Notes under the pieces: generated by a model
Databases searched by the model: none
What the model was told of the DNA's origin: nothing
Seen by the model: the letters and a program-made list of their open reading frames with translations, nothing else
Shown: positions 1,922 to 24,491 of the stretch, piece after piece
Layout of the letters: each line of letters begins with the position of its first letter
How positions within the stretch are numbered: the first letter of the stretch is position 1
Position numbers and translations under genes: made by a program
DNA from: Nitrospirota bacterium
GTDB lineage: Bacteria > Nitrospirota > CAKKRA01 > 9FT-COMBO-42-15
DNA: 33,078 nucleotides
Assembly: GCA_023248415.1 (NCBI GenBank)
Contig: JAHFEP010000002.1
Location: 1-33,078 of the forward strand
Reading direction: 5' to 3'

Positions 1922-2428
1922 ATGAATAAGAAGGTGCTTTTGTTTGGGATTTGCATTGGATTAGTAGTTGGTCTTATGATTGGCTCTTTTGGAACAATTG
2001 CAGTAAATGCAGCAAACGGCTGGCTAACAGGCTCAGTGGAAGAAAAGTTAGATAAGTTAGCCTCAATTCAGCCAGGATACGGAATAATGATGCAGCAGAT
2101 TGGGCTAAGGTATAATGACTTGTATTTTTCAGCAAAGTCAGGCAACTGGGGATTTGCAGAGCATCAGGCAGATGAAATTCAGGTTATCCTGAAAGATATC
2201 CTCATGGTCACTAAGCCAAAACGAAATGAAGATGCAAAAAAATTCTTAGCAGCATCATATCCAATGATTTTGGATGCAATAAAGAAGGAAAAGTTCCCTG
2301 AATTTGAAAAGGCATTTGAAACCCTTCGCAACAATTGTATGAACTGCCATATCTCTCAGAAAGTTGAGTTTGTAAAATTAAAAAAACCAGTAATGTCCGC
2401 AAGCCCTGTATTAGCAGGAGTTAAGTAA
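1922..2428 (+). CDS. Membrane-anchored monohaem cytochrome c, class II (cytochrome c'/c556)-like
   Basis: N-terminal hydrophobic anchor. One CXXCH (CMNCH) near the C-terminus of a ~130-aa predicted helical domain, the architecture typical of class II cytochromes c. AGGAGG lies upstream of the ATG. Confidence 0.6.
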   Translation: MNKKVLLFGICIGLVVGLMIGSFGTIAVNAANGWLTGSVEEKLDKLASIQPGYGIMMQQIGLRYNDLYFSAKSGNWGFAEHQADEIQVILKDILMVTKPKRNEDAKKFLAASYPMILDAIKKEKFPEFEKAFETLRNNCMNCHISQKVEFVKLKKPVMSASPVLAGVK

Positions 2429-2433
2429 TAAAT

Positions 2434-2480
2434 CCCCTCACCCTACCTCTCCCCTTTGTGGAGAGGATAAAGGTGAGGGG
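2434..2480. repeat. Nested hairpin repeat (CCCCTCACC ... GGTGAGGGG with inner CCTCTCC/GGAGAGG)
   Basis: Outer 9-bp stem 2434-2442 pairs with 2472-2480; inner 7-bp stem 2446-2452 pairs with 2460-2466. It lies 6 nt after the cytochrome stop. It shares the CCCCTCACCCC core with the element inside cca. Confidence 0.7.
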
Positions 2481-2510
2481 AACACTTTATCAAATATTTT
2501 TTTTTAATCA

Positions 2511-3887
2511 ATGAAAAAGCTATTTTTTATACTAATTATAGTCTCCATAATATTGAACACTTCACTCTTGAGCTATTCAGATGAAAAAAAAGATAAAAAA
2601 GAGAAAGAAGAAAAACACGAAAAAGAGGAACATAAAAAGGGCTGGGAGGCAGTAGAAAAGAGATATAAGCATTTTGAAAATCCGCAGGTCTGCGGCGGCT
2701 GCCATCCTGAATTCTTTGAAGAATGGAAGGAATCCAAACACAGCAGGTCATTTACCAATAATATATTTCAAGGAATGTATAAATTATCCCTTTCCGATTT
2801 AAAGGGTAATGAAAATATAAAGGACGATATAAATAGATGCATCCTATGCCATTCTCCGAGCGCCTTTTTTGCAGGCGATATACCGCCGACACCCGATGAA
2901 GATAAATTAGCAGAAAGGGGTATAATGTGCGACTTCTGCCATACTGTAGAGGGCATTAAGGGCGCTCTACCGCATAATGGAAATTTTATAAATAACAACG
3001 GCCCTGATATTGACCCGAAGAGAGGGCCTTGGAAGGATGCGAAATCGCCGTATCACCAGACTATATATTCTGAGCTGCATACGAAATCAGAATTCTGCGG
3101 CACATGCCACAATCAGAAAAATTCCAATGGCGTATGGATTCAGGAGACATATAATGAATGGAAAAACAGCGAATGGGCAAAGGAAGGCTACCAGTGCCAG
3201 GACTGCCACATGATGGGAGAAGGAAAGTCTCATCCGATTATAAGCAAGGAATTCATGAAGGCAGATGCAAGACAGAAGACAGTCACTCACAGATTCCCCG
3301 GATTCGGCTCCAATGTAAAGATACCCGATGCGGTAATATTAAAGGTATCAGTAAATAAGCCTAAAGCCAAATTAGGCGAGGAGTTGATTATCAAGGTCAG
3401 TGTAACAAATAAAAAGGCGGGTCACAAATTCCCAAGCAGCTCGCCGAATTTAAGGCAGCTTTGGCTTGAGATAAATGCAATAGACAATAAAAAAAGGGCT
3501 CCCATCCTACTAAAGACAGATGAAGAAAAACCAGCCCCTTATGACATAACAAGCAATACACCAGCATATAAAGATATTGAAAGGGACGGCCTGCCTGAAG
3601 GAAACAGGATATATCACAGCGTATTTGTAGATAAGGGTAATCAGCATACTTACGCCTTCCATGATGCAGCAAAGATGGCTTTTGACAACAGGCTAAAACC
3701 AAAAGAGACAAGGATAGAAACCTATAAATGGAAGATACCAGAAGATACCCCTGTTGGCGAGGTTATAATATCAGCAAAGCTGAATTACAGGTCAATGCCG
3801 CAGTCTTTATCTGATTATATTGAGGCTGGCGAGATGCCGATTACAGAGGTTGCATATAATGAGGCATCAGTATTTGTAGCAAAATAA
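2511..3887 (+). CDS. Pentahaem c-type cytochrome with a haem-free C-terminal domain
   Basis: Signal peptide followed by a K/E-rich linker. Five CXXCH motifs: CGGCH, CILCH, CDFCH, CGTCH, CQDCH. The last ~200 aa have no haem motifs. Confidence 0.8.
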   Translation: MKKLFFILIIVSIILNTSLLSYSDEKKDKKEKEEKHEKEEHKKGWEAVEKRYKHFENPQVCGGCHPEFFEEWKESKHSRSFTNNIFQGMYKLSLSDLKGNENIKDDINRCILCHSPSAFFAGDIPPTPDEDKLAERGIMCDFCHTVEGIKGALPHNGNFINNNGPDIDPKRGPWKDAKSPYHQTIYSELHTKSEFCGTCHNQKNSNGVWIQETYNEWKNSEWAKEGYQCQDCHMMGEGKSHPIISKEFMKADARQKTVTHRFPGFGSNVKIPDAVILKVSVNKPKAKLGEELIIKVSVTNKKAGHKFPSSSPNLRQLWLEINAIDNKKRAPILLKTDEEKPAPYDITSNTPAYKDIERDGLPEGNRIYHSVFVDKGNQHTYAFHDAAKMAFDNRLKPKETRIETYKWKIPEDTPVGEVIISAKLNYRSMPQSLSDYIEAGEMPITEVAYNEASVFVAK

Positions 3888-3900
3888 AGCGCCTCTGTCT

Positions 3901-3987
3901 GTCATTCCCACGAAAGTGGGAATCCAGTTTTTCGTTTTCTGAATTCCTGCTGGAGTTTACCCCTGCGAAGGCAGGGACAGGAATGAC
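3901..3987. repeat. Composite REP/BIME-like palindromic element (GTCATTCC ... GGAATGAC)
   Basis: Hairpin GTCATTCCCACGAAAGTGGGAATCC (3901-3925) plus CCTGCGAAGGCAGG hairpin, ending GGAATGAC. The first 25 nt are the exact reverse complement of 13586-13610. Confidence 0.75.
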
Positions 3988-4034
3988 AAAATAAATAAGA
4001 AGAAGCCTCTCTTTAGGCAGAAAGGACAAAGGTA

Positions 4035-4619
4035 GTGGGAAGACAATACTTTATTAAAAAAGGGTTCCAGTCAAAATTTATCATTAAATTCTGTCTTATT
4101 GTCATCTTGGGTGCAATAATCTCTGGAATTATCCTCTATGCCTCTACAAATCAAAGATTGGGCAATACCTATCTTGAATCATTAAATACCATAAAGGTGC
4201 TTAATGATAATCTTATAAGTAATCTTATATATACAAGCTTGGCTACAGTTATCTTCATCAGCATTGTAACAATTATTATAACCCTTTTCGCCTCACATAA
4301 GATTGCAGGACCCCTCTTCCGCCTTGAAAAGAACACTGAAATAATAGGCAATGGCGATTTAACCCTTGAGACAAGGCTAAGAAAGAATGATGAGATAACC
4401 GGTGTTGCATCAGCATTAAATGAGATGGCAGGAAAACTGCGCAGCAAAATGATAGACATAAGAACAGACCTTGAAGAGGTTAAAAAGGGCAGCGCTGATA
4501 TAGAATCAGCGATTAAGGATAAGAGGCTTTCTGAAAAAGAACTTAAAAAACAGATAACAAGGCTTTCAAATAGAATAAAAAGTTTAAACAGGGCAATATC
4601 AAAATTTACAGTTTCATAA
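4035..4619 (+). CDS. HAMP-domain membrane protein without recognisable output domain
   Basis: GTG start. N-terminal YFIKKGFQSKFI motif, two TM helices separated by ~26 aa, HAMP (SHKIAGPLFRLEKNTEIIGNGDLTLE...NEMAGKL), then a coiled-coil tail. Paralogue of 5505-6113. Confidence 0.75.
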   Translation: MGRQYFIKKGFQSKFIIKFCLIVILGAIISGIILYASTNQRLGNTYLESLNTIKVLNDNLISNLIYTSLATVIFISIVTIIITLFASHKIAGPLFRLEKNTEIIGNGDLTLETRLRKNDEITGVASALNEMAGKLRSKMIDIRTDLEEVKKGSADIESAIKDKRLSEKELKKQITRLSNRIKSLNRAISKFTVS

Positions 4620-4638
4620 TGCTGAGCTTGGCGAATGT

Positions 4639-5496
4639 ATGAAAAATAAATTATTTTTTATTATACTATCTATCCTAATTATAACCTTTTCAACAATTGC
4701 GTATACTGTCATAAATGATGTCCCGCATAATTACCGCCTTGATGAATGTCTCCAATGCCATATATCTATACCTGATGAAACAAAAAAAATAGATAAGCCC
4801 ATGAGATTTATAGATAATATAAACAAGCTCTGCCAGCGCTGCCACACAGAAGATATACAACTCTCTCATCCGGTGGGAGTCAAACCATCTATGTCTATAC
4901 CTGCAGACATGCCCCTTAATGAAATGGGAGAGGTCACTTGCGCCACATGCCACAATATACATCAGAAAAGAGATGATATATTAGGTGATAAGTCATATCT
5001 GTTGAGAAGAAATGTAATGGGAAAGGCATTTTGTATGGCATGTCACGGAAAAGATGAGGCTAAAAAAAATGTTGAGACCTTTTCACTCGGCATGAGGAAG
5101 GTCACAAAGCCTTCTCACAGGGAATTTTTGTCTGAGGCGCACGGATTTAAGAAATACAGGATTATTGACTCATCCTCTCCAATAGACAGCATTTCAATAG
5201 AATGTTTAGGGTGCCATGACGGAACAATAGGCGCTGATACACAGGTTACAATTGGCGCAGGTATCTGGCAGCATTCGGAGGCAAATGCAAGCAGCCACCC
5301 AATAGGGATAGACTATACCGCCGCACAGCTAAATAACAGAACATTAAGACCAATGGAGCAGTTAAATAAGGCGATAAAATTCTTTAATGGCAAGATTGGA
5401 TGCGGGTCTTGCCATAACCCGTATTCTAATGTAAGCACACAGCTTGTTATGAGCAATAAAGGGAGCGCCTTATGCCTTGAATGTCATAAGAAATAG
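4639..5496 (+). CDS. Heptahaem c-type cytochrome
   Basis: Signal anchor. Seven CXXCH motifs: CLQCH, CQRCH, CATCH, CMACH, CLGCH, CGSCH, CLECH. Confidence 0.8.
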   Translation: MKNKLFFIILSILIITFSTIAYTVINDVPHNYRLDECLQCHISIPDETKKIDKPMRFIDNINKLCQRCHTEDIQLSHPVGVKPSMSIPADMPLNEMGEVTCATCHNIHQKRDDILGDKSYLLRRNVMGKAFCMACHGKDEAKKNVETFSLGMRKVTKPSHREFLSEAHGFKKYRIIDSSSPIDSISIECLGCHDGTIGADTQVTIGAGIWQHSEANASSHPIGIDYTAAQLNNRTLRPMEQLNKAIKFFNGKIGCGSCHNPYSNVSTQLVMSNKGSALCLECHKK

Positions 5497-5504
5497 GAGG
5501 TAAG

Positions 5505-6113
5505 ATGGAGAAGCCAAAAGCAGAAACAAAGTTCAGAAGAAGAAACTTTTTTATAAAAAAGGGTTTTCAGGCAAAATTCATCCTGCGATTTATTTTAATT
5601 ATATTCTTAGGGATAGTGGTTTCAAGCGGTATTGTATACTATTTGACCTCAAAAAGGATAGAAGAGGTTTATTACCGCTCCCACATTAAGATTGCATCAA
5701 CAGGTGAGATAATATACCCCATTTTGCTTACTGCAAACATAATTACACTCGGCATAATAATAGTTGTCACCATTATAATAACCTTGCTAATATCGCATAA
5801 AATAGCAGGCCCGCTTTACAGGATAGAAAAGAGCATCCATGAAATAGGCGAAGGCAACCTTGCTTTTAAGATATATCTCAGGGCAAAGGATGAGCTTATA
5901 ACACTTGCTGAGATATTTAACAACATGATTACAAAACTGCGGGGTAGGATTGAGAGGATACAGGATGCTGCTAATTATATGGACAGCACAATCAATCAAT
6001 GGACAGTTATCAAAAAAATGGACAAAAAGGCATTATCAAAGGATATAACAGCCATCCAAAAGAAAGCTAATGAGATTGAAAAGGTAATTGCAACATTTAA
6101 GCTGGAGAAATAG
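5505..6113 (+). CDS. HAMP-domain membrane protein without recognisable output domain (paralogue of 4035-4619)
   Basis: AGGAGG 8 nt upstream. NFFIKKGFQAKFI motif, two TM helices, SHKIAGPLYRIEKSIHEIGEGNL HAMP, coiled-coil tail. Confidence 0.75.
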   Translation: MEKPKAETKFRRRNFFIKKGFQAKFILRFILIIFLGIVVSSGIVYYLTSKRIEEVYYRSHIKIASTGEIIYPILLTANIITLGIIIVVTIIITLLISHKIAGPLYRIEKSIHEIGEGNLAFKIYLRAKDELITLAEIFNNMITKLRGRIERIQDAANYMDSTINQWTVIKKMDKKALSKDITAIQKKANEIEKVIATFKLEK

Positions 6114-11970: not shown

Positions 11971-13503
11971 TTATCCCAATGACTGCCTGATGCGCGCTGC
12001 CTCAACAATCTGCTCTTTGGGATCCTTCTTCTCCTTCCAGAGGAAATATATATTGGATGTAATGTTCCTGTGTATAAAATGCCTTGTATCTGTTGGACCA
12101 AGCTCTTTGCCAATAAATTCTTCTATAAGCTTTACATCCTCAGCAATATCATTCCATACCTTCTCTGTCTTTGCCAGGAAATACAGGTTCTCCTTGTTAA
12201 GATAATTCCCTGCCATCTGCATATCAGGTATAAAATTTTTATAAAATAGTTTAAGGTCTCTATCAAGCCCCTTTTTTACAATCTCCCTAATCCCCCTGCC
12301 AACGCCAATCAATTCAGGAGGTATGCCGAGGGAATACAATGCTGCTGTGAAGGTAATTGCCCGCGGGAGCCTCTTTTTGCCCATTCCCCTTGAATAGCCG
12401 AATAGGCCGATATGGAGCATTCTCTCCCTTCTCCTCGGGATATATTCTGACAGATTATTTATAGTACCTGCAATCTCCTCTATTGTTTTACAATAATATT
12501 TGCTGAATATTGATATAATCTTCTTCCCATTCTTCATATCAGATGTTGAAAAGGTCTTTGGCTTGCCTGTTCTTAACATCTTGTTAAGATACCTTACAGT
12601 CTTTCTCGCCTCATCAACAGGATAGTCGTATCTAAGTGCAGATTGTATTGTAACAGTCCTTACACCGCTGTATTCATCAAGAAAGTTTCTAACAGTAGAA
12701 GGTGAAAGCCCTCCCCTGAACGGCAGAGCGCCAACACCAATAATCGGAAAAACAGGGACACCGCTTTCTTCGCTGAATTTATAAAATTCAGAGAGTGCAA
12801 TCTTTGCAGCAATGGTTGCAGAGACTATGCCGGCGTTTAATGCAGGGTCAGAACGTGCAATAAACGGCCTCAGATATTCTGGAGGAGACTTATACTCCTT
12901 TTTATGCAGCCTGACATAATCATGCAGTATCTTTTTTGAGGATGTTAGCTCATTAATCCCCTCAATCAGAGGAATCACCCTCAAATAATTAAAGACCTTT
13001 ACTTTCTCGCCAAAGGCCTTATCTTTAAATTTTGCTATCTGGGCAAAGGTTTTTTGTAAATAAATAAGTTTTTCTGCCTTATCCGTCATCGGCAGGATTA
13101 CCTCAAAGACAGGCGGACTCGCCACCTTAAGGGCGCTTGAAAAATCAACAGATGTCAATATCGCCATGTATGCCCTTGCTATCCTGTAGCCCTTTTCAAG
13201 CCATATATTCGGAAGGCGGAATGTTAAGAATATGTCCTTGCCAAGCTGCCTCTTTCTAAAGAAGGTATAGTATGTGGTAAAGAGCTTGTCTACTACAGCC
13301 TCATCAACATGCTTCCCCTCCCAGTCCCACATATATTCATCACACATGTAATCACGGTATGACCTGAACGCCTCCTCAACCTCTTCTATTGTGCTGATAA
13401 ACGGGTCTCCATTCTCCTTCCAGAAAGGTGCAGAAACATTGTCAGGATGCTGGGTTGCCATTGTGGCAGGTATTTTTCTCTTTATGTTCACTTTTTTGTT
13501 CAT
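11971..13503 (-). CDS. ppcA: Archaeal-type phosphoenolpyruvate carboxylase (PEPcase type 2)
   Basis: ~510 aa, roughly half the size of bacterial Ppc. The N-terminal IPATMATQHPDN signature is characteristic of the archaeal-type PEPC family. Confidence 0.8.
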   Translation of the reverse strand: MNKKVNIKRKIPATMATQHPDNVSAPFWKENGDPFISTIEEVEEAFRSYRDYMCDEYMWDWEGKHVDEAVVDKLFTTYYTFFRKRQLGKDIFLTFRLPNIWLEKGYRIARAYMAILTSVDFSSALKVASPPVFEVILPMTDKAEKLIYLQKTFAQIAKFKDKAFGEKVKVFNYLRVIPLIEGINELTSSKKILHDYVRLHKKEYKSPPEYLRPFIARSDPALNAGIVSATIAAKIALSEFYKFSEESGVPVFPIIGVGALPFRGGLSPSTVRNFLDEYSGVRTVTIQSALRYDYPVDEARKTVRYLNKMLRTGKPKTFSTSDMKNGKKIISIFSKYYCKTIEEIAGTINNLSEYIPRRRERMLHIGLFGYSRGMGKKRLPRAITFTAALYSLGIPPELIGVGRGIREIVKKGLDRDLKLFYKNFIPDMQMAGNYLNKENLYFLAKTEKVWNDIAEDVKLIEEFIGKELGPTDTRHFIHRNITSNIYFLWKEKKDPKEQIVEAARIRQSLG

Positions 13504-19274: not shown

Positions 19275-19700
19275 TTCCCAATCACTATATTACGCCCTCT
19301 GTTTGATGCTGTAGAGCACTATGGCAAACCAAAATCTTTACGGACAGACAATGAACATCTCTTTACCTCATGGCTATTTAAATTCAGCTTATGGCTAATG
19401 GGTATTCGTCATCAGCTTATTGACAAGTGTTGTCCCTGGCAGAATGGACGGGTAGAGCGATTCTTTGGCACATTAAAAGAGAAGCTAAATCAATGGCAGG
19501 TAAACAATAGGGAACAACTTAATGGAGCGCTTGCTCAGTTTCGGTTCTGGTATAACCATGTTCGGCCGCATCAAAACCTGAACGGCAAAACGCCAGCAGA
19601 GGTTTGGAAAGGAATAGACATCTTTATCAGAAGACCCAAAAAGGAATACTGGTTTGAGGCATGGGATGGGCTTTTGACAGGGATATATCTGAAGATTTAA
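19275..19700 (+). pseudogene. 5'-truncated DDE (rve/integrase-core) transposase remnant
   Basis: The frame is open from 19239. YGKPKSLRTDNEHLF (second catalytic D) is followed 36 residues later by PWQNGRVERFF (catalytic E) and WYNHVRPHQNLNGKTPAEVW. The N-terminal HTH and first D are absent. It starts directly after the lipoprotein stop. Confidence 0.75.
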
Positions 19701-19854
19701 TCTGCCTATTAATTATAGTTGGCTAAAATTAGATTTGGAAAAAGAGGGTGTCCGTGGGAGGTTTGTGTTTATAAGTTAAACCTGACTGAAAATATTTCAA
19801 GGACATAAAAAAACAATACAAAAATACCGTTTAGAAGAAAAAAATTATGACAAA

Positions 19855-20019
19855 GAAGTTAAAATAACGCCTGATTACTTAAAAAAATAGCTCAAGCAAC
19901 GCAGGAAAGGTCTTACGGACAGTCGGACAGGACACAGAGAAGTTAAAATAACAGCGGATTTTCTAAAAAACAACTCAAGAATCAACAGGAACGGTCTTGC
20001 GGACAGACGGACAGGACAC
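19855..20019. repeat. Two tandem ~81-bp direct repeats (period 84 bp, ~80% identical)
   Basis: Both units run GAAGTTAAAATAAC...CTCAAG...GGTCTT(A/G)CGGACAG(T/A)CGGACAGGACAC (19855-19935 and 19939-20019). Confidence 0.8.
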
Positions 20020-20297
20020 CTCCTGCCAACTGCATCATAAGCAAGGCTGAAGCCTTGCCCTACACTGTTGATTAATGTATTAATACCTGTCAAGCGACTA
20101 TTAGAGTCGTAGCTATAACTCACCGTCGGCTGTCCCGCTACTGTCATGCTTGTCCTTCTCCCTATAGCATCGTATGTATAGTCAATAGCCCCCAGAGGTG
20201 TTACCTCCTTTATCACCTTGTCTGCAGCCCCACCACTGCAACTGCCTGTGCTGCATCCACTATTGGAATAGGTATAGGAGATAGAACCAGAGTGCAT
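20020..20297 (-). pseudogene. Rhs/YD-repeat core fragment
   Basis: YD repeats IDYTYDAIGRRTS, VSYSYDSNSRLTG and LAYDAVGRR. The frame then reads through the 81-bp repeats (CPVRLSARPF... twice), which is not Rhs sequence. Confidence 0.7.
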
Positions 20298-20329
20298 TTT
20301 ATGAGATGTGCTTCTCTAAACCAAAGCCT

Positions 20330-20887
20330 TCAGGTTGATTTATCTTCTATATCTTCTAATATGGATGTGCCAAGTCTCCTTTCTAATTTGGCAATGTAAA
20401 TTAATATAAATATCTGACTAATAAACCAAGCAATGCCACCCCCTACTGATACTATTTGTAAAAGTTGCTCCATGTGCCATTGCCGCAATCTTCTCAACAG
20501 ATGAAATGAATTAACTGCTGTGATTATTAATACCATCAATAAACCTCCCTTAAATTTAGCAAATTTAGTATCCTGTCTATAATATATAACATTACCCTTA
20601 ATCTTTTTCTCTATTACTTTTTTACATAAATAATACATCGGAATGCTTAATATTATACCAGTAAGAATTTTCTCTGGTATCTTTTTTGTCATATCACCAA
20701 CAGACAAGGATACTATCATCAACAGAAGCAAGCTCACTCCTAAGATATAGTAAGTGCTTTTTTTAAATAATCTGCCTTTAAAAACATAACTTTTTGCAAT
20801 CAAGCGCCATATAATAAGAATTATCATTCCTATTACTGCAACAACTAAATTCATAATGTGCCTCACTATGCCTGTAATAACAAGCAA
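20330..20887 (-). CDS. Polytopic membrane protein, candidate immunity protein for the upstream Rhs C-terminal domain
   Basis: 185 aa with ~5 TM segments. It starts 18 nt after the Rhs-CT stop. No recognisable family. Confidence 0.45.
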   Translation of the reverse strand: MLVITGIVRHIMNLVVAVIGMIILIIWRLIAKSYVFKGRLFKKSTYYILGVSLLLLMIVSLSVGDMTKKIPEKILTGIILSIPMYYLCKKVIEKKIKGNVIYYRQDTKFAKFKGGLLMVLIITAVNSFHLLRRLRQWHMEQLLQIVSVGGGIAWFISQIFILIYIAKLERRLGTSILEDIEDKST

Positions 20888-20905
20888 CAGATATTTACTA
20901 TCATT

Positions 20906-21625
20906 TCAATTGCAGCACCAATCATTCCCAGGTGGACAATAAGGGTCTACGGGTGGTCTAGGCGGACCGGGGGGCTTAGGCGGCTTGGGTGGATGACACC
21001 AGTAATCACATCCATATATACAAAAAATAGACGTACCAGCCCAACAAAGTGCTGTACACACTGGCATATATGGTCCAGCAGTTGCGCAAACATAGGCACA
21101 ATACATCGTCCCCCCTCCTCCACAAATAAGGCCACATGCAACATCACAACCTGTTACTTCTAATCCAAGGGGGTCAGTAAAGTTTATTGGCCGATTTCCC
21201 ACATAACTGAAAAAGTTAATATCTCCACCTTTTAATCTTATCGGGTCTTCTGATATAAACCTCTGCAGTTCAGGCGAGTAGTATCTTGCCCGATAGTAAT
21301 ACAACCCAGTCCCATTATTCTCTCTACCTGTGTATTGAAAAGGATTATCACTTGCCTCGCCTGTTATTGTTACAGCGCCAAAGGGGTCATAGGAGTAAGT
21401 TGTTTTAACTGCTCCTGTATTGTCTGTCAATGCTATCACTGAACCCAAAGCATCAGTCTGATAAAAGCGCAATGCGTTAGGCGTGATGCGGGCAAGAGGC
21501 TCGTCAATGTTCAATGTGCGGATGTAATTAATAGACACAGCTCCGCCCTCAATCTCCTGCACTATATCTAAACCATCATAAAGATACTGCTTTGTGATGC
21601 CGTTGATGGTCTTTTCTACGGACAC
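20906..21625 (-). CDS. Orphan Rhs C-terminal module: last YD repeats, DPxG-x19-DPLGL cleavage motif, 84-aa Cys/Pro-rich C-terminal domain
   Basis: YYYRARYYSPELQRFISEDPIRLKGGDINFFSYVGNRPINFTDPLGL, then EVTGCDVACGLICGGGG...HPPKPPKPPGPPRPPVDPYCPPGNDWCCN. GTG start with AAGGAAAG upstream. The Rhs N-terminus and most of the core are absent. Confidence 0.75.
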   Translation of the reverse strand: MSVEKTINGITKQYLYDGLDIVQEIEGGAVSINYIRTLNIDEPLARITPNALRFYQTDALGSVIALTDNTGAVKTTYSYDPFGAVTITGEASDNPFQYTGRENNGTGLYYYRARYYSPELQRFISEDPIRLKGGDINFFSYVGNRPINFTDPLGLEVTGCDVACGLICGGGGTMYCAYVCATAGPYMPVCTALCWAGTSIFCIYGCDYWCHPPKPPKPPGPPRPPVDPYCPPGNDWCCN

Positions 21626-21638
21626 TATTTCTTTCCTT

Positions 21639-22142
21639 CTACTTCTTCATAGATGTTTTCTTCAATATCAATTTTCCCAGTGCAATACCAATACCTATAT
21701 AAACTAAAACATCAAAAAAGGTAGTAAGTGTATCCCTAAGAAAATTAATAGTAATAGTGGATACAACAATAATACCCCCATCTGGCATTTTAACCTGATT
21801 GTATGACTGATTGTATGGAAAGAGAATTTCAAATATTCCTGAGATAGGTTTTAAAATCCAACCTGCTCCTCTTAACAAAATATGAGCTAAATAACTTGAG
21901 AAAAGCGAAGTATATACTGCAAGCACATTGAAGAGAATCAAGAATAAAGTCCCCACCACATTTAGCAATAAACCTATTCGTGCCCATTTCAGCCAGCCTG
22001 ATGCCTTTGGGAAATACTTGTTCGGCAAAAAAAGCAACAAAAATCCAACCCAAAAAAAGAATATTGATGGCATCTTTCCACCACTTAAGAAAGGAGCGAG
22101 AAATCCACAGATAATAATTAAAAAGCCCAAGAAATTAATCAT
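21639..22142 (-). CDS. Polytopic membrane protein, candidate immunity protein
   Basis: 167 aa with ~5 TM segments. It starts 38 nt after the second Rhs-CT stop. No recognisable family. Confidence 0.45.
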   Translation of the reverse strand: MINFLGFLIIICGFLAPFLSGGKMPSIFFFWVGFLLLFLPNKYFPKASGWLKWARIGLLLNVVGTLFLILFNVLAVYTSLFSSYLAHILLRGAGWILKPISGIFEILFPYNQSYNQVKMPDGGIIVVSTITINFLRDTLTTFFDVLVYIGIGIALGKLILKKTSMKK

Positions 22143-22180
22143 TCTATTATTATTTTCCCCTGTCCACTTTACTCAATTTA

Positions 22181-22543
22181 TCACCGTTGACATATCGTTC
22201 TCCACACGTTGGGAAGGGTCGTAGGGAAAAATATCATAAAAGTTGTATCACCTGCGATTCGTCTTTCATATTTATCAGAGGCTGTTGTATTTTCGGTTTT
22301 AATATAACAATTGCTGCAATCATCACAACATAAATAATAAATTGTAATATACCTCTTCATCCATCCTACCTCATATTTCCCCCAGTAACAATATCCAAGG
22401 ACTCCTTCAATCCTAGTTTCCCTACTTTCTACTCGCCACTCTGTTCGCCAAATGTCAAATTGATAGCCTGTTGTTGTCGACCATATCGGTACACAAAATA
22501 GGCCTAATGGATCAACCCAATTAATGACAGGACAGGACAGGAC
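22181..22543 (-). pseudogene. Rhs 3' remnant: ...INWVDPLGL followed by a 105-aa unrecognised C-terminal domain
   Basis: DPLGL is encoded at 22513-22499 and the CT at 22498-22181. The track ORF's N-terminus (to 22579) lies inside the inserted element, so there is no native start. Confidence 0.6.
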
Positions 22544-22546
22544 AGG
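22527..22546. repeat. Pentanucleotide microsatellite (ACAGG)x4
   Basis: ACAGGACAGGACAGGACAGG lies directly against the left inverted repeat of the Y1 element. It is read as PVLSCPV in the Rhs remnant frame. Confidence 0.85.
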
Positions 22547-23466
22547 GTCAAGTCTTGAAATATTAGTTCCTCCCTTCAACCTCTTTAATTGCTTTGCTTA
22601 TTGTAGTATAGTGGAGTCTCAGATAATCTGCAATCTCTTTTAATTTGTAGCCATATCTTATATGGGCCTGATATATCGCCTCTTTCCTCTTGCCACTGTC
22701 CTGCCTATCCTTAAATAGCTTTGCAAGCTCAGGTCTGCCAATATATCTCTGGCGCCTCGGTATCTCCTTTATCTCCTTCTTGTCTGATAATAATTCCTTA
22801 AATCTTGTGATAAATTCATCTTCTCCAAGCAGTATCTGGCCTTTTATCTCATCCCACGGCTTTCCTTTGTTATTCCCTGCCTTGACAAATTCTGCATATC
22901 TCTTTTCTGCCTTCTTTCTTTTGCTCCCAAATTGTCCAAGTATCCAGTCTACTGTAAGATATAAAGGAGTCTTTGTCTTGCCTATAGCAGCTAAATAGCT
23001 GCTCCATCTCCATTCCTCTGGCCTTTTTATAATGCCTGCTCTTACAGGGTTTAATACTACATATCTGCATAGCTCAAGCAGGTATTCTTCTTTTTCTACC
23101 AATATAGCCTTATATCTGCCTTGAAAGATATGTCCTGTCTTCTTATGCCTTCTATTGTATGCCTGTGTGTATACTCCATTTAGCTGCCTCATGCCTAAAG
23201 ACAGGTTAGGTTCAGGGGTTTCTATCATTATATGATAGTGATTGTCCATTAAACAGTAGGCATGGCAGAGCCAATTGTACCTTTTTATAACTGAACCTAA
23301 TATCTCAAGAAATAGCTCTCTATCTTTATTATCCTTGTATATTTTACTCCTTGCATTCCCTCTTGAGGTTATATGATATACTGCATTAGGGTATTCTATC
23401 CTTAATGGTCTTGACATAGCATTTTTATTATAGCATCGCAATATTTATTTTTCAAGACTTGACCCT
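22544..23466 (-). mobile_element. IS200-like (Y1/HUH transposase) element bounded by a perfect 15-bp inverted repeat
   Basis: AGGGTCAAGTCTTGA (22544-22558) is the exact reverse complement of TCAAGACTTGACCCT (23452-23466). Both are followed inward by AATATT, with a 6-nt indel on the right side. A single transposase gene lies between them. Confidence 0.7.
22563..23417 (-). CDS. Y1 (HUH) tyrosine transposase, IS200/RAYT-like, with C-terminal DnaA-C-like HTH domain
   Basis: RIEYPNAVYHITSRGN and HUH motif MDNHYHIMIE, with catalytic-Tyr region GHIFQGRYKAILV. C-terminal YQAHIRYGYKLKEIADYLRLHYTTISKAIKEVE is HTH-like. The ATG at 23417 is preferred over the TTG at 23441. Confidence 0.8.
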   Translation of the reverse strand: MSRPLRIEYPNAVYHITSRGNARSKIYKDNKDRELFLEILGSVIKRYNWLCHAYCLMDNHYHIMIETPEPNLSLGMRQLNGVYTQAYNRRHKKTGHIFQGRYKAILVEKEEYLLELCRYVVLNPVRAGIIKRPEEWRWSSYLAAIGKTKTPLYLTVDWILGQFGSKRKKAEKRYAEFVKAGNNKGKPWDEIKGQILLGEDEFITRFKELLSDKKEIKEIPRRQRYIGRPELAKLFKDRQDSGKRKEAIYQAHIRYGYKLKEIADYLRLHYTTISKAIKEVEGRN

Positions 23467-24071
23467 CTTTCTTCTCTTATGAAACGACCTATCTTCGCAT
23501 CATAATATCTTGCCCTGTAGTAATATATCCCTGATTCCTCGTCATATTCTCTACCAGTATAAGTATACGGTTGCACAAAAGAGGAGTCAAGCTGATAGGT
23601 TATCTCTCCGAAGCTGTTGTATTCATACCTCTGCACCACATTGCCAGAGCTATCTGTTATGGCGATGATGCTTCCCAGTCCATCGGCATGGTAATAATAT
23701 GTCTGATTGTTTCTTATCATTGCAATCGGCTCATCAATGCCTGGGCCGTGAAGGTATTCAGTTACGATATTGCCAGACGCGTCTAACTCAAACAAAATGT
23801 CTTCTCGGTCATAGACATATTTCTTAATAGTGACAGTGTTAGTAGCAGTGTCGGTAACAGACTTCTCAATCCTACGACCAAACGGATCATATTTATAAGT
23901 TACGAGTTGCGAGTTAGGAGTTGTGAGTTGAACAAGACGGTTTTCGGAGTCGTATTGATATGTAGTTGTTCCTGTAGTATCGGTTTTTGATGTCATATTG
24001 CCATTAGCGTCATATGTAAAGCCCGTGCCGTTCTGTGTTAAAAGCTCATTGCCATTGTTGTAAGTATACAC
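23445..24071 (-). pseudogene. Rhs core C-terminal fragment, truncated at both ends
   Basis: YD repeats (FTYDANGNMTS, YQYDSENRLV, YKYDPFGRRIEKS, YEYNSFGE) and YYYRARYYDAKIGRFI. The frame then runs into the right IR of the Y1 element (REERGSSLEK stop) before any DPxGL motif. Confidence 0.75.
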
Positions 24072-24074
24072 ACT

Positions 24075-24491
24075 TTATCTTTTATACCATAAATATAATT
24101 TAACTGTAAGAACAATAATCATTAATCCAACAAGACCTCCTACTATCCAGCCTAAAAAAGTTTTAATCAATCCAGCAATTAATCCTATACTTGCTCCACC
24201 AATCGCCAAACCTAAAAAAAGCCCAATCAACTTCATATCTATGTCTAAACCACCTGAAAAATGCGCAATAATAAATAAAATTATTATCAATATAGTAAGC
24301 AGCAAGCCATATAATATTGTTTTAAAAGAAGGATATTCGCTTGTTCCAATAAATTCAAACCCAAACTTTACAAAATATCCAATATAACCAAGTATAAAGA
24401 AGAATATAGCTACTTTAATAAAAATTCTTATTTCTTTATCCCACTTCTCAAAAAGTTTAATTATCCAATTATCTATTGAAAAATTTCCCAT
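24075..24491 (-). CDS. Small polytopic membrane protein (Gly-zipper-rich), possible orphan immunity gene
   Basis: 138 aa with 3-4 TM segments (GLAIGGASIGLIAGLIKTFLGWIVGGLVGL). Very A/T-rich. Its stop lies 3 nt before the Rhs fragment. Confidence 0.45.
   Translation of the reverse strand: MGNFSIDNWIIKLFEKWDKEIRIFIKVAIFFFILGYIGYFVKFGFEFIGTSEYPSFKTILYGLLLTILIIILFIIAHFSGGLDIDMKLIGLFLGLAIGGASIGLIAGLIKTFLGWIVGGLVGLMIIVLTVKLYLWYKR

Follow-up and report, generated by a model that had tools for sequence, protein, structure and literature searches.

An orphan Rhs cassette in a Nitrospirota genome carries a candidate membrane-targeting C-terminal domain with ten mirrored cysteines

The stretch of DNA analyzed here (the window; 33,078 nucleotides) contains, at positions 19875-24491, a tandem array of three Rhs fragments and as many genes for small membrane proteins, cut by IS elements. 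From the array head to the element that bounds it, the features are:

24075-24491, minus strand: gene for a 138-aa membrane protein at the array head, directly after rpsF-ssb-rpsR
23445-24071, minus strand: Rhs core fragment of 208 aa (RHS_repeat, E 3.8e-18; Rhs_assc_core, positions 1-48 of 76 only)
22563-23441, minus strand: IS200-like/REP-associated tyrosine transposase gene (PF01797, E 1e-13; NF047646, E 1.3e-24)
22181-22579, minus strand: remnant of the preceding Rhs cassette (...DPVLSCPVINWVDPLGL) with an unrelated 8-Cys C-terminal domain (CT); no family match
21639-22142, minus strand: gene for a 167-aa membrane protein, putatively the immunity gene of the disrupted cassette before the orphan
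20906-21625, minus strand: orphan Rhs fragment of 239 aa, with a GTG start and its stop codon at 20906-20908
20330-20854, minus strand: putative cognate immunity gene for a 174-aa polytopic membrane protein, assigned from its position and from a partner gene at a second locus, L002
19875-20297, minus strand: truncated fragment of YD repeats, downstream of the putative immunity gene (RHS_repeat, E 1.1e-8)
19398-19700, plus strand: IS3/IS481-type integrase remnant bounding the array (rve_3, E 1.5e-17; IS481/IS3 models)

The locus is a degenerate, decayed array of Rhs-CT/immunity cassettes in a Nitrospirota MAG. The tyrosine transposase gene is inserted in the Rhs core of the preceding cassette, and its insertion truncated the 208-aa fragment inside the ...RFI(S/R)E(D/E) region; at the other end, the tail of the YD-repeat fragment enters two tandem copies of ~84 bp (repeats at 19850-20019). 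The gene for the 167-aa membrane protein ends 13 nt before the GTG of the orphan fragment and is 84% identical in nucleotides to positions 114-601 of L002, which holds a syntenic array longer by one cassette, placed between repeated core segments. The neighboring CTs in both arrays are also Cys-rich, which suggests an oxidizing, extracytoplasmic site of action. No full-length rhs, PAAR, VgrG, T6SS gene or secretion system was found within the 33-kb window, and a promoter and terminator scan of the array gave no enrichment over shuffles.

By translation, the orphan ORF consists of the 3′ end of an Rhs core (155 aa) followed by an 84-aa CT, with the following parts, all on the minus strand:

21161-21625, minus strand: Rhs core remnant (aa 1-155), with the final YD repeats plus the RHS repeat-associated core domain
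21161-21247, minus strand: DPIRL-x19-DPLGL aspartyl autoproteolysis motif, read from the translation and from the point at which shell alignments end
20993-21160, minus strand: CT core (CT aa 1-56), almost uncharged, with ten mirror-symmetric Cys and a GP..P turn
20951-20992, minus strand: polyproline tract PPKPPKPPGPPRPP (PPx repeated five times), read from the translation and conserved in the homologue from L002
20909-20950, minus strand: variable C-terminal tail VDPYCPPGNDWCCN with three extra Cys, read from the translation and unconserved in that homologue

In the core remnant, TIGR03696 (Rhs_assc_core) matches residues 79-155 with an E-value of 7.6e-25 (87 bits against a cutoff of 32.5), and PF05593 matches as well. 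The remnant aligns with the C-terminal end of solved Rhs/TcC/teneurin shells, and these alignments stop at residue 155; for the cleaved Rhs core chains 8cp6_B (Tse5), 8qjb_A and 4o9x_A, the alignment end is Leu155 of the orphan. The protease motif reads DPIRL-KGGDINFFSYVGNRPINFT-DPLGL, with 19 residues between its halves, and cleavage is predicted after Leu155, in keeping with the role described for DPxxL-type Rhs self-cleavage motifs (PMC9637101). The original prediction had placed the 84-residue C-terminus directly behind this motif, which is exact (CT, nucleotides 20909-21160), and had taken the carrier for an Rhs protein, of which it is a fragment. A full-length Rhs architecture, with an N-terminal delivery domain such as PAAR and a complete YD-repeat shell of ~1000 aa, is absent from the 239-aa ORF. 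Because the ORF is this short, has an in-frame TGA immediately upstream and covers only positions 1156-1261 of the 1261 in NF041261 (RHS_core), it was classified as an orphan fragment. An AAGGA lies 8 nt before its GTG start, the gene call is identical on the ENA contig (L001), and the protein forms a singleton cluster.

Cysteine accounts for 13 of the 84 residues of the CT (15.5%), compared to 1.0% in window ORFs of at least 200 aa. The translation bears out what had been reported of its composition, namely the 13 Cys, six CxxxC spacings, the PPKPPKPPGPPRPP tract and the terminal WCCN. The Cys lie at CT positions 5, 9, 13, 21, 25, 35, 39, 47, 51, 55, 75, 82 and 83, and six pairs at i,i+4 are more than residue shuffles yield (p~0.002 over the full CT, and 0.0003 when its first 56 aa are taken). 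The description of the domain as CxxxC-periodic is correct for these six spacings and yet understates the signal, which is an exact mirror symmetry of five plus five Cys: the core pairs 5/55, 9/51, 13/47, 21/39 and 25/35 all satisfy i+j=60 (5 of 5), for which the exact chance is 4.5e-5. Such symmetry implies a putative antiparallel hairpin with five Cys-Cys rungs. The only charged residues in the core are D6, D52 and E1, with no K or R and just two Asp in 50 residues, and hydrophobicity is moderate (Kyte-Doolittle 19-residue maximum of 1.4, and 1.63 in the homologue), a figure that is partly due to Cys being counted as hydrophobic.

An AF2 model of the CT, built on a two-sequence alignment, is a helix-turn-helix with helices at 5-29 and 34-60 (89-aa numbering) and a core pLDDT of 77-83; the polyproline tract has no regular secondary structure (pLDDT 57). 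A Foldseek search of the PDB with this hairpin returned a single, nonsignificant match (E 6.8) to ATP synthase subunit c, a transmembrane hairpin that serves as an analogy only. On an ideal alpha-helix, the Cys spacings of 4, 4, 8 and 4 sweep 200 degrees, so that five simultaneous inter-helix rungs would need strong supercoiling or a kink; judged by Cys spacing, a beta-ribbon would fit better than an alpha-helix.

The gene downstream of the CT encodes a membrane protein for which Pfam, NCBIfam and PADLOC profiles gave no family match and plasmid searches no match. It had been placed 18 nt downstream of the orphan fragment, a distance that corresponds to an alternative TTG start at 20887 (185 aa). 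That start is less likely; the most likely one is the ATG at 20854, 51 nt after the stop, because of a GAGG 6 nt upstream, the gene caller's choice and alignment with M1 of the homologue. The proposed five transmembrane segments stand in part: four to five hydrophobic segments are seen in the sequence, and five helices in an AF2 model whose low confidence (pLDDT 54) restricts its use to counting helices. From its position and co-conservation, this protein is probably the immunity protein that neutralizes the CT.

A HMMER scan of 1.84 billion (1.84e9) cluster representatives recovered one true homologue of the CT, P0002 (E 2.3e-4), from the groundwater contig that carries L002. A second match, P0001 (E 1e-13), is a tandem-repeat protein matched via ten short stretches and was rejected as spurious. 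P0002 retains all ten core Cys at an overall identity of 48% and a non-Cys identity of ~22%, and the chance of retaining all ten at the observed identity is below ~1e-4. Its Cys symmetry is maintained, at i+j=53, despite a 3-aa loop deletion, and two Cys codons differ synonymously between the two sequences. The proline tract is conserved as PPKPPEPPKPPAPPAPP (PPxPP), while the C-terminal end is GDGGSTC, unlike the window tail. The conservation of Cys and mirror symmetry at such low identity argues that the CT is a real, constrained domain. In the CT core, dN/dS is ~0.9; outside the Cys, a silent orphan under relaxed selection would likewise show a value near 1. Downstream of P0002 lies a gene for a 168-aa membrane protein; its identity to the window partner is 42%, and the AWFISQIFILIYIAKLE run is the same in both. 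Thus, the pairing of CT and downstream membrane protein, whose failure to recur would have spoken against the proposed toxin-immunity pair, does recur in L002; that locus is a syntenic one in a related organism and not another delivery scaffold, and the apparent toxin-immunity linkage is one of synteny, not of independent co-occurrence. The family has two known members, both in orphan arrays of related organisms.

As originally proposed, the CT could be assigned to no known toxin family, having no significant match in Pfam, NCBIfam, PADLOC or PDB sequences. In Pfam, zero families matched at E<=10 (core) or E<=1 (CT); the best NCBIfam matches to the CT had E-values of 0.11-0.84; PADLOC gave none; and PDB chains, including the Tse5 entries, gave no CT match at E<=10. 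Nothing was retrieved by a word-indexed homology search with the CT or with the two-sequence CT alignment, or by comparison of the CT with phages. When GTDB genomes and JGI metagenomes were scanned with patterns back-translated from the CT and immunity alignments, there were pattern matches, but tblastn confirmed none of them as a relative. A DNA pattern for the ten Cys (TGY spacing, with a loop of either 9 or 6 aa) run against IMG/VR found no CT-like ORF; the ORFs matched were all (C-x3)n low-complexity repeats with at least 13 Cys. A plasmid tblastn search with the CT matched only Ralstonia (E=2-9), and the match that was inspected lay mostly just past an annotated gene, with nothing CT-like.

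Taken together, these results favor, with a probability of roughly 0.55, an orphan (displaced) Rhs toxin/immunity cassette whose payload is a new family of small hydrophobic membrane-targeting CTs, comparable to Tse5/Tsi5 or BiTLP-CTD. The 84-aa payload would found a previously undescribed toxin-domain family of a kind that is already known, a membrane-targeting Rhs CT with a membrane immunity protein. Membranes are the most likely target of the CT, a mode of killing already known among Rhs toxins, and the combination of a nearly uncharged core with a polytopic membrane partner fits a membrane-directed toxin.

The mechanism that we infer covers cleavage, compartment, disulfides, membrane insertion, toxicity and immunity. 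The payload would comprise an almost uncharged antiparallel hairpin with two arms of ~25 residues, a rigid PPxPPxPPxPPxPP rod and a short variable Cys tail, the five Cys-Cys pairs forming a ladder at the interface of the hairpin arms. Since the window holds no delivery domain, full shell or secretion system, its copy is undeliverable as it stands; the retained core of ~155 aa could provide homology for recombination into a full-length rhs, as in known rhs systems. Fused to a functional Rhs protein, the CT would be delivered into the periplasm of a neighbor and the peptide released. The Cys ladder would hold the hairpin, either through disulfides formed in the oxidizing periplasm or as a small-residue zipper, and the peptide would partition into the cytoplasmic membrane, oligomerize and dissipate the membrane potential, while in the producer the 174-aa inner-membrane partner would intercept it within the bilayer and so protect the cell.

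A bolder version of this reading is offered tentatively, and we consider it doubtful: the CT may be the first of a new structural class, a membrane-inserting hairpin zipped by a five-rung Cys ladder with redox state as the switch. While enclosed by the Rhs cocoon in the cytoplasm of the producer, the CT would be reduced and unfolded; in the victim's periplasm it would be oxidized to a rigid, protease-resistant transmembrane staple, with the polyproline rod projecting from the membrane, a principle unrelated to that of glycine-zipper or colicin-type pore formers.

The alternative that survives best, though an unlikely one, is a soluble disulfide-stapled hairpin that would act in the periplasm or at the envelope not by forming pores but by binding one particular target, for example a lipid-linked wall precursor or a membrane protein at its periplasmic face; the downstream membrane protein would then confer immunity by sequestering the peptide or shielding its target. 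The fold could be an alpha-hairpin (alpha-hairpinin- or twin-CX3C-like, with five rungs) or a long beta-ribbon (tachyplesin/gomesin-like). Mirrored CxxxC...CxxxC is the signature of disulfide-stapled hairpins such as the alpha-hairpinins (PMC7191063), and halocin C8, a ten-Cys hydrophobic peptide, is reported to damage the envelope (bioRxiv 10.64898/2026.07.27.741052). The beta-ribbon would also suit the Cys spacings, all of which are even and would set five rungs in register, and the abundance in the core of beta-formers and Gly (C, G, T, Y, V, I). However, the surface of the CT is essentially without charged or strongly polar residues, unlike that of soluble hairpin peptides, AF2 prefers helices, and a polytopic membrane immunity protein best suits an encounter within the membrane.

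The cassette could also be a nonfunctional relic, a silent, decaying orphan no longer expressed or deliverable, whose Cys pattern is a residue of an ancestral toxin; this is improbable. The CT family is extremely rare, the window fragment has neither a delivery domain nor, within the window, a secretion system, the array is full of IS elements and truncated fragments, and a dN/dS of ~0.9 in the CT core would be compatible with decay. At L002, the protease motif of P0002 is interrupted by an insertion of 25 aa and the ORF upstream is broken, so that at least this copy is decaying. Against a relic, the CT and the membrane protein downstream of it each have an intact ORF at the two loci, the ten Cys are kept, with their symmetry and the Pro tract, at an overall identity of 48%, and the window copy has a plausible ribosome-binding site and an intact cleavage motif. 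Furthermore, cells are known to keep orphan immunity genes as protection, and an orphan rhs module can become active again or serve as a toxin-antitoxin pair (PMC3967940, PMC7043789).

It is very improbable that the CT is a divergent halocin C8-like domain, a ten-Cys hydrophobic archaeocin-type peptide fused to RHS. Precedent exists in Nitrolancea (N. hollandica), where halocin C8-like domains are fused to RHS proteins (bioRxiv 10.64898/2026.07.27.741052), so that a small hydrophobic Cys-rich Rhs C-terminus is not in itself without parallel. Of the models compared with the 56-aa core, TIGR04449 scores best (12.6 bits, E 0.2), both domains have ten Cys and are small (~55-75 aa), hydrophobic and Gly/Ala-rich, and local similarities occur (GC..ACG, C...CA..G). 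Nevertheless, this score, like the 10.7 bits of the 84-aa CT, is well below the 24-bit cutoff, P0002 has no match to the model, and hhalign of the CT alignment against the halocin C8 alignment, both of them small, gives a probability of 12%. A word-indexed search for bridging sequences with the halocin C8 alignment produced one archaeal match and no bridge. Halocin C8 Cys spacing, as read from four haloarchaeal domains on plasmids (in H. volcanii, CxxC-x7-C-x3-C-x7-C-x13-C-x7-C-x8-C-x8-C-x6-C), is neither CxxxC-periodic nor mirror-symmetric, and these domains have no Pro tract. A metal-binding thiolate-lined hairpin or bundle (Cu(I), Zn or Fe-S), or a RiPP-like precursor with enzymatically cross-linked Cys, is likewise very improbable: the CxxxC rows of the CT do face a partner row, resembling both the Cys-lined helical bundles of Csp copper-storage proteins and the CxxxCxxxC hairpins of sactipeptides, and Cys-Xaa3 repeat radical-SAM targets match nonsignificantly (E 3.9-7), but the adjacent genes include none for a radical-SAM enzyme, a maturase, a transporter or metal handling, PDB sequences gave no match, and the Rhs-CT position with a downstream membrane protein is polymorphic-toxin grammar.

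Rhs proteins and other polymorphic toxins are a main source of new antibacterial mechanisms, and to our knowledge only a handful of their payloads act on membranes. If the CT is toxic, it would be a very small (~55-residue) membrane-directed warhead built on a mirrored five-pair Cys ladder, and the cassette would offer a clean system for studying toxin recognition by a polytopic membrane protein inside the bilayer. The size of the CT suits chemical synthesis, biophysics and engineering. As far as we know, contact-dependent antagonism is essentially unstudied in Nitrospirota; the orphan-cassette array documented here in uncultured groundwater Nitrospirota extends the Rhs arsenal beyond the well-studied Proteobacteria.

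Among the closest known systems is Tse5 (RhsP1, PA2684) of Pseudomonas aeruginosa, whose CT is a pore-forming Rhs C-terminus with a membrane immunity protein, Tsi5 (PMC9637101, PMC10684867). Like the window CT, that of Tse5 directly follows the cleavage motif (DPxGL-x18/19-DPxGL), is hydrophobic and has no enzymatic signature; Tsi5, an integral inner-membrane protein, is likewise encoded immediately downstream; and the window core aligns to the Tse5 shell up to the Tse5 cleavage site. In contrast, Tse5-CT has 149 aa with several predicted transmembrane or amphipathic helices, no Cys ladder and no sequence similarity to the window CT, Tsi5 has two predicted transmembrane segments compared to the four to five hydrophobic segments of the window partner, and the orphan fragment of the window contrasts with Tse5, a full-length PAAR-like/Rhs effector that belongs to a defined T6SS.

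A second parallel is BiTLP-CTD, from a teneurin-like protein of Bacillus inaquosorum (PDB 9PT5), which is hydrophobic and is reported to be toxic only on export to the periplasm and to associate with membranes in simulation (PMC13018210). It too is small (~93 aa), Gly/Ala-rich and located behind an RHS/YD-shell cleavage site, and after it comes a short Pro-rich, Cys-containing stretch (...CPQEPPKPANKCP...). BiTLP is the only PDB chain aligning beyond DPLGL; homology of the two domains was rejected, as the extension past DPLGL adds only ~4.5 bits and hhalign gives 1.4%. BiTLP differs from the window in having no Cys ladder, a teneurin-like scaffold and a Gram-positive host.

In twin-CX3C small Tim proteins (alpha) and tachyplesin/gomesin-type peptides (beta), mirrored CxxxC motifs pair their Cys across an antiparallel hairpin. 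The alpha-hairpinins have the same mirrored CxxxC...CxxxC, with C1-C4 and C2-C3 pairing (PMC7191063). The CT pattern extends this two-CxxxC arrangement to five mirrored pairs, modeled by AF2 as a helical hairpin, with no sequence homology to hairpinins. The known Cys-stapled peptides have two rungs and are eukaryotic, cationic or polar, soluble and unrelated in sequence, whereas the window CT has five putative rungs (3+2 with a gap) and an uncharged surface and is a bacterial Rhs payload. The halocin C8-like domain (TIGR04449) shares the ten Cys, the wealth of small residues, the hydrophobicity and a similar size and is used as a secreted antimicrobial; it differs from the CT in its Cys spacing, in lacking a polyproline tract and in its immunity function, which is the N-terminal HalI domain of the same precursor and not a downstream membrane protein.

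In its organization, the locus most resembles the orphan rhs-CT/rhsI modules known from Salmonella, E. coli and Dickeya among the Enterobacteria (PMC3967940, PMC3150448, PMC7043789), although it has no main rhs upstream within the window, follows rpsF-ssb-rpsR and belongs to a Nitrospirota host. Those modules are likewise 5′-truncated, consisting of the 3′ end of the core, a CT and an immunity gene, and they are also tandem and IS-associated. Recombination between repeated core segments, described for such modules together with their immunity genes (PMC3967940, PMC3150448), brings about cassette gain and loss in Enterobacteria, and the same difference is seen between the window and L002.

The 84-aa Cys-rich C-terminal domain (CT) was placed by the original prediction on an Rhs protein, but its carrier is an orphan fragment rather than a full Rhs protein, since the ORF is preceded immediately by an in-frame TGA and retains no more than the final ~155 aa of an Rhs core. 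This 239-aa ORF starts at a GTG located 13 nt past the stop of the preceding gene and 8 nt after an AAGGA; it matches TIGR03696 (E 7.6e-25) and is covered by NF041261 only at model positions 1156-1261 of 1261. Residues 127-155 form the self-cleavage motif, DPIRL-KGGDINFFSYVGNRPINFT-DPLGL, and translation confirmed that the 84 aa originally quoted are exactly those following it. Residues ~6-155 align with solved shells of the Rhs, TcC, and teneurin-like types, and the alignments end at the Leu of DPLGL, which is the end point of cleaved chains such as Tse5 8cp6_B. The surrounding array is organized as follows:

24075-24491, reverse strand: membrane protein, 138 aa, at the array head after rpsF-ssb-rpsR
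23445-24071, reverse strand: Rhs fragment, 208 aa, its core cut by the transposase gene
22563-23441, reverse strand: IS200-like/REP-associated tyrosine transposase gene with a C-terminal HTH, inside the Rhs core
22181-22579, reverse strand: cassette remainder, 132 aa (...DPLGL plus an unrelated CT), split off by the transposase
21639-22142, reverse strand: membrane protein, 167 aa, directly before the studied orphan
20906-21625, reverse strand: studied orphan Rhs ORF, 239 aa
20330-20854, reverse strand: membrane protein, 174 aa, directly after the orphan (putative immunity gene)
19875-20297, reverse strand: truncated YD fragment running into two 84-bp tandem copies
19398-19700: IS3/IS481 integrase remnant adjoining the tandem copies

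The 8-Cys CT (~110 aa) of the 22181-22579 remnant had no family match. The two ~84-bp tandem copies (19850-20019; 81-91% identity) sit where the YD fragment is truncated and produce the odd repeated tail (CPVRLS[AV]RPFL) of ORF 19875-20297. Elsewhere, the 33-kb contig encodes housekeeping functions (H+-PPase, ychF, pth, prs, ispE, multihaem cytochromes, and an archaeal-type PEP carboxylase), and no secretion system was found there. The PEP carboxylase (PEPcase_2) falls in a 90% cluster whose name in NCBI MAGs is 'Nitrospirota bacterium', and two genes for multihaem c-type cytochromes are interspersed with two for HAMP-domain proteins (2511-6113, forward, and 11971-13503, reverse, spans that also cover PEPcase_2).

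As originally described, the CT contains 13 Cys (positions 5, 9, 13, 21, 25, 35, 39, 47, 51, 55, 75, 82, and 83; 15.5% vs 1.0% in the window's long ORFs), six Cys pairs at i,i+4 spacing, a PPKPPKPPGPPRPP tract, and a terminal WCCN. Six such pairs are rare in residue shuffles (p~0.002 for the whole CT; 0.0003 in its 56-aa core). A striking and previously unremarked feature is the exact mirror symmetry of the ten core Cys (5+55 = 9+51 = 13+47 = 21+39 = 25+35 = 60), for which the exact combinatorial chance with ten Cys placed randomly in 56 positions is 4.5e-5. This symmetry implies an antiparallel hairpin whose arms would face each other via five Cys-Cys rungs, an outer set of three and an inner pair, separated by a gap at G17/T43. 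An AF2 model from a two-sequence alignment is a helix-turn-helix (core pLDDT 77-83); the predicted hairpin could be alpha or beta alike, because the 4,4,8,4 spacings sweep 200 degrees on an ideal alpha-helix, whereas all rungs are in register on a beta-ribbon. Such rungs would also suit a soluble, disulfide-stapled, envelope-binding peptide, a less likely reading. The core is composed of the residues C, G, A, T, Y, V, and I, with no Lys/Arg and only two Asp in ~50 residues.

Word-indexed searches found no CT relatives, and HMMER, run in full against 1.84 billion cluster representatives, returned two matches, of which P0001 was rejected as a tandem-repeat artefact. The other, P0002 (213 aa, E 2.3e-4), is likewise an Rhs fragment and occurs both on a Hainich groundwater contig (L002) and in a Logan assembly. 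Past DPLGL it has ten core Cys spaced as in the window CT, with a loop three residues shorter, then PPKPPEPPKPPAPPAPP and a tail unlike the window's. Its Cys sums are all 53, so the symmetry withstands the loop deletion, and its rung gap is W15/A38. A silent relic is improbable. The two known copies are both orphans; all ten core Cys are invariant despite ~22% non-Cys identity and a core dN/dS of ~0.9, two of their codons differing synonymously. The L002 copy (2166-3250) is split into 142-aa and 213-aa ORFs, with 25 aa inserted between its DPI and DPLGL; it therefore has the look of an orphan in decay, although neither its CT ORF nor its immunity ORF is disrupted.

Recurrence with a homologous downstream membrane protein, as predicted, was seen once: the 168-aa protein after P0002 is 42% identical to the window's 174-aa protein and shares an identical AWFISQIFILIYIAKLE run. 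Both window proteins are singleton clusters among ~15 billion proteins, and no further family members were found in GTDB genomes, JGI metagenomes, IMG/VR, plasmids, or phages. L002 is syntenic with the window's array, its first gene being 84% identical in nucleotides to 21642-22171; thus, the pair recurs only once and by common descent. (Many viral contigs, such as IMG/VR loci L184, L052, L138, and L153, encode long ORFs of uninterrupted (Cys-x3)n with small residues, e.g., CSGSCSANCAADCSSGC; these are unrelated to the CT.) In L002, two ~71%-identical Rhs core segments flank one additional Rhs-CT/immunity cassette, an outcome that recombination between repeated cores would produce. This cassette (593-2127), missing from the window, comprises a 348-aa Rhs fragment with a 78-aa CT (6 Cys; Pro-rich ends, RPIIPIPPG... 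and KPGPIPPPPFDVGPKPRIPF), followed by a 153-aa protein with a signal-like N-terminus; payloads rich in both Cys and Pro seem typical of the Rhs array in this lineage.

The putative immunity gene had been placed 18 nt downstream, where the start is a TTG; ATG 20854, 51 nt downstream of the CT stop, is most likely the start because it follows a GAGG by 6 nt, is the gene caller's choice, and aligns with Met1 of the homologue. The product is predicted to be polytopic, as proposed, with four to five hydrophobic helices. Its last ~39 aa (20330-20446) match L002 3707-3802 at 87% nucleotide and 72% amino acid identity, including a 17-aa identical run, vs 33% amino acid identity elsewhere in the gene. 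This far more conserved 3' end, together with jumps in synonymous divergence between adjacent segments (Rhs core 2.4, CT core 0.72, upstream membrane gene 0.18), suggests a mosaic, recombining history.

Neighbouring CTs in both arrays are likewise Cys-rich, suggesting that the toxin would act outside the cytoplasm, in an oxidising environment. Given the almost uncharged core, the hydrophobic-helix partner, these Cys-rich neighbours, and two characterized precedents, the most likely reading (probability roughly 0.55) is a Cys-laddered hairpin that inserts into membranes, paired with an immunity protein acting inside the membrane. We infer that the CT would be released by cleavage, act as a toxin in that compartment, perhaps with its Cys oxidised, and be countered by the adjoining protein. 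A metal-binding or RiPP-like peptide is very improbable.

As predicted, the CT has no significant match in Pfam, NCBIfam, PADLOC, or PDB sequences. A small Cys-rich or hydrophobic Rhs payload is, however, not new. The best family lead is TIGR04449, the halocin C8-like domain, reported as a fusion with RHS proteins in Nitrolancea (bioRxiv 10.64898/2026.07.27.741052); halocin C8, like the CT core, is a ten-Cys hydrophobic peptide. Membership as a divergent halocin C8 domain was rejected and has little probability: the CT core scores 12.6 bits vs a cutoff of 24, P0002 does not match TIGR04449, hhalign gives 12%, and the Cys spacing in four haloarchaeal domains taken from plasmids differs and lacks symmetry. 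The sole PDB chain aligning past DPLGL is a Bacillus inaquosorum teneurin-like protein (BiTLP, 9PT5), whose CTD is also small and hydrophobic and is followed by ...EPPKP...; the extension adds only ~4.5 bits (hhalign 1.4%), so BiTLP-CTD was rejected as a homologue and is an analogue only. For the CT model, Foldseek gave a single match, to the transmembrane hairpin of ATP synthase subunit c (E 6.8). The pores formed by Tse5-CT are cation-selective, and Tsi5, an inner-membrane protein, neutralises this toxin (PMC9637101); BiTLP-CTD is reported to associate with membranes in simulation and to require export for toxicity (PMC13018210). Rhs/YD shells thus do deliver small hydrophobic membrane toxins. 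The window array has the anatomy of the orphan rhs-CT/immunity arrays described in Enterobacteria (PMC3967940, PMC3150448), differing in being degenerate and in a different phylum, and the CT represents a genuine toxin-domain family, conserved but very rare, within this known kind of system.
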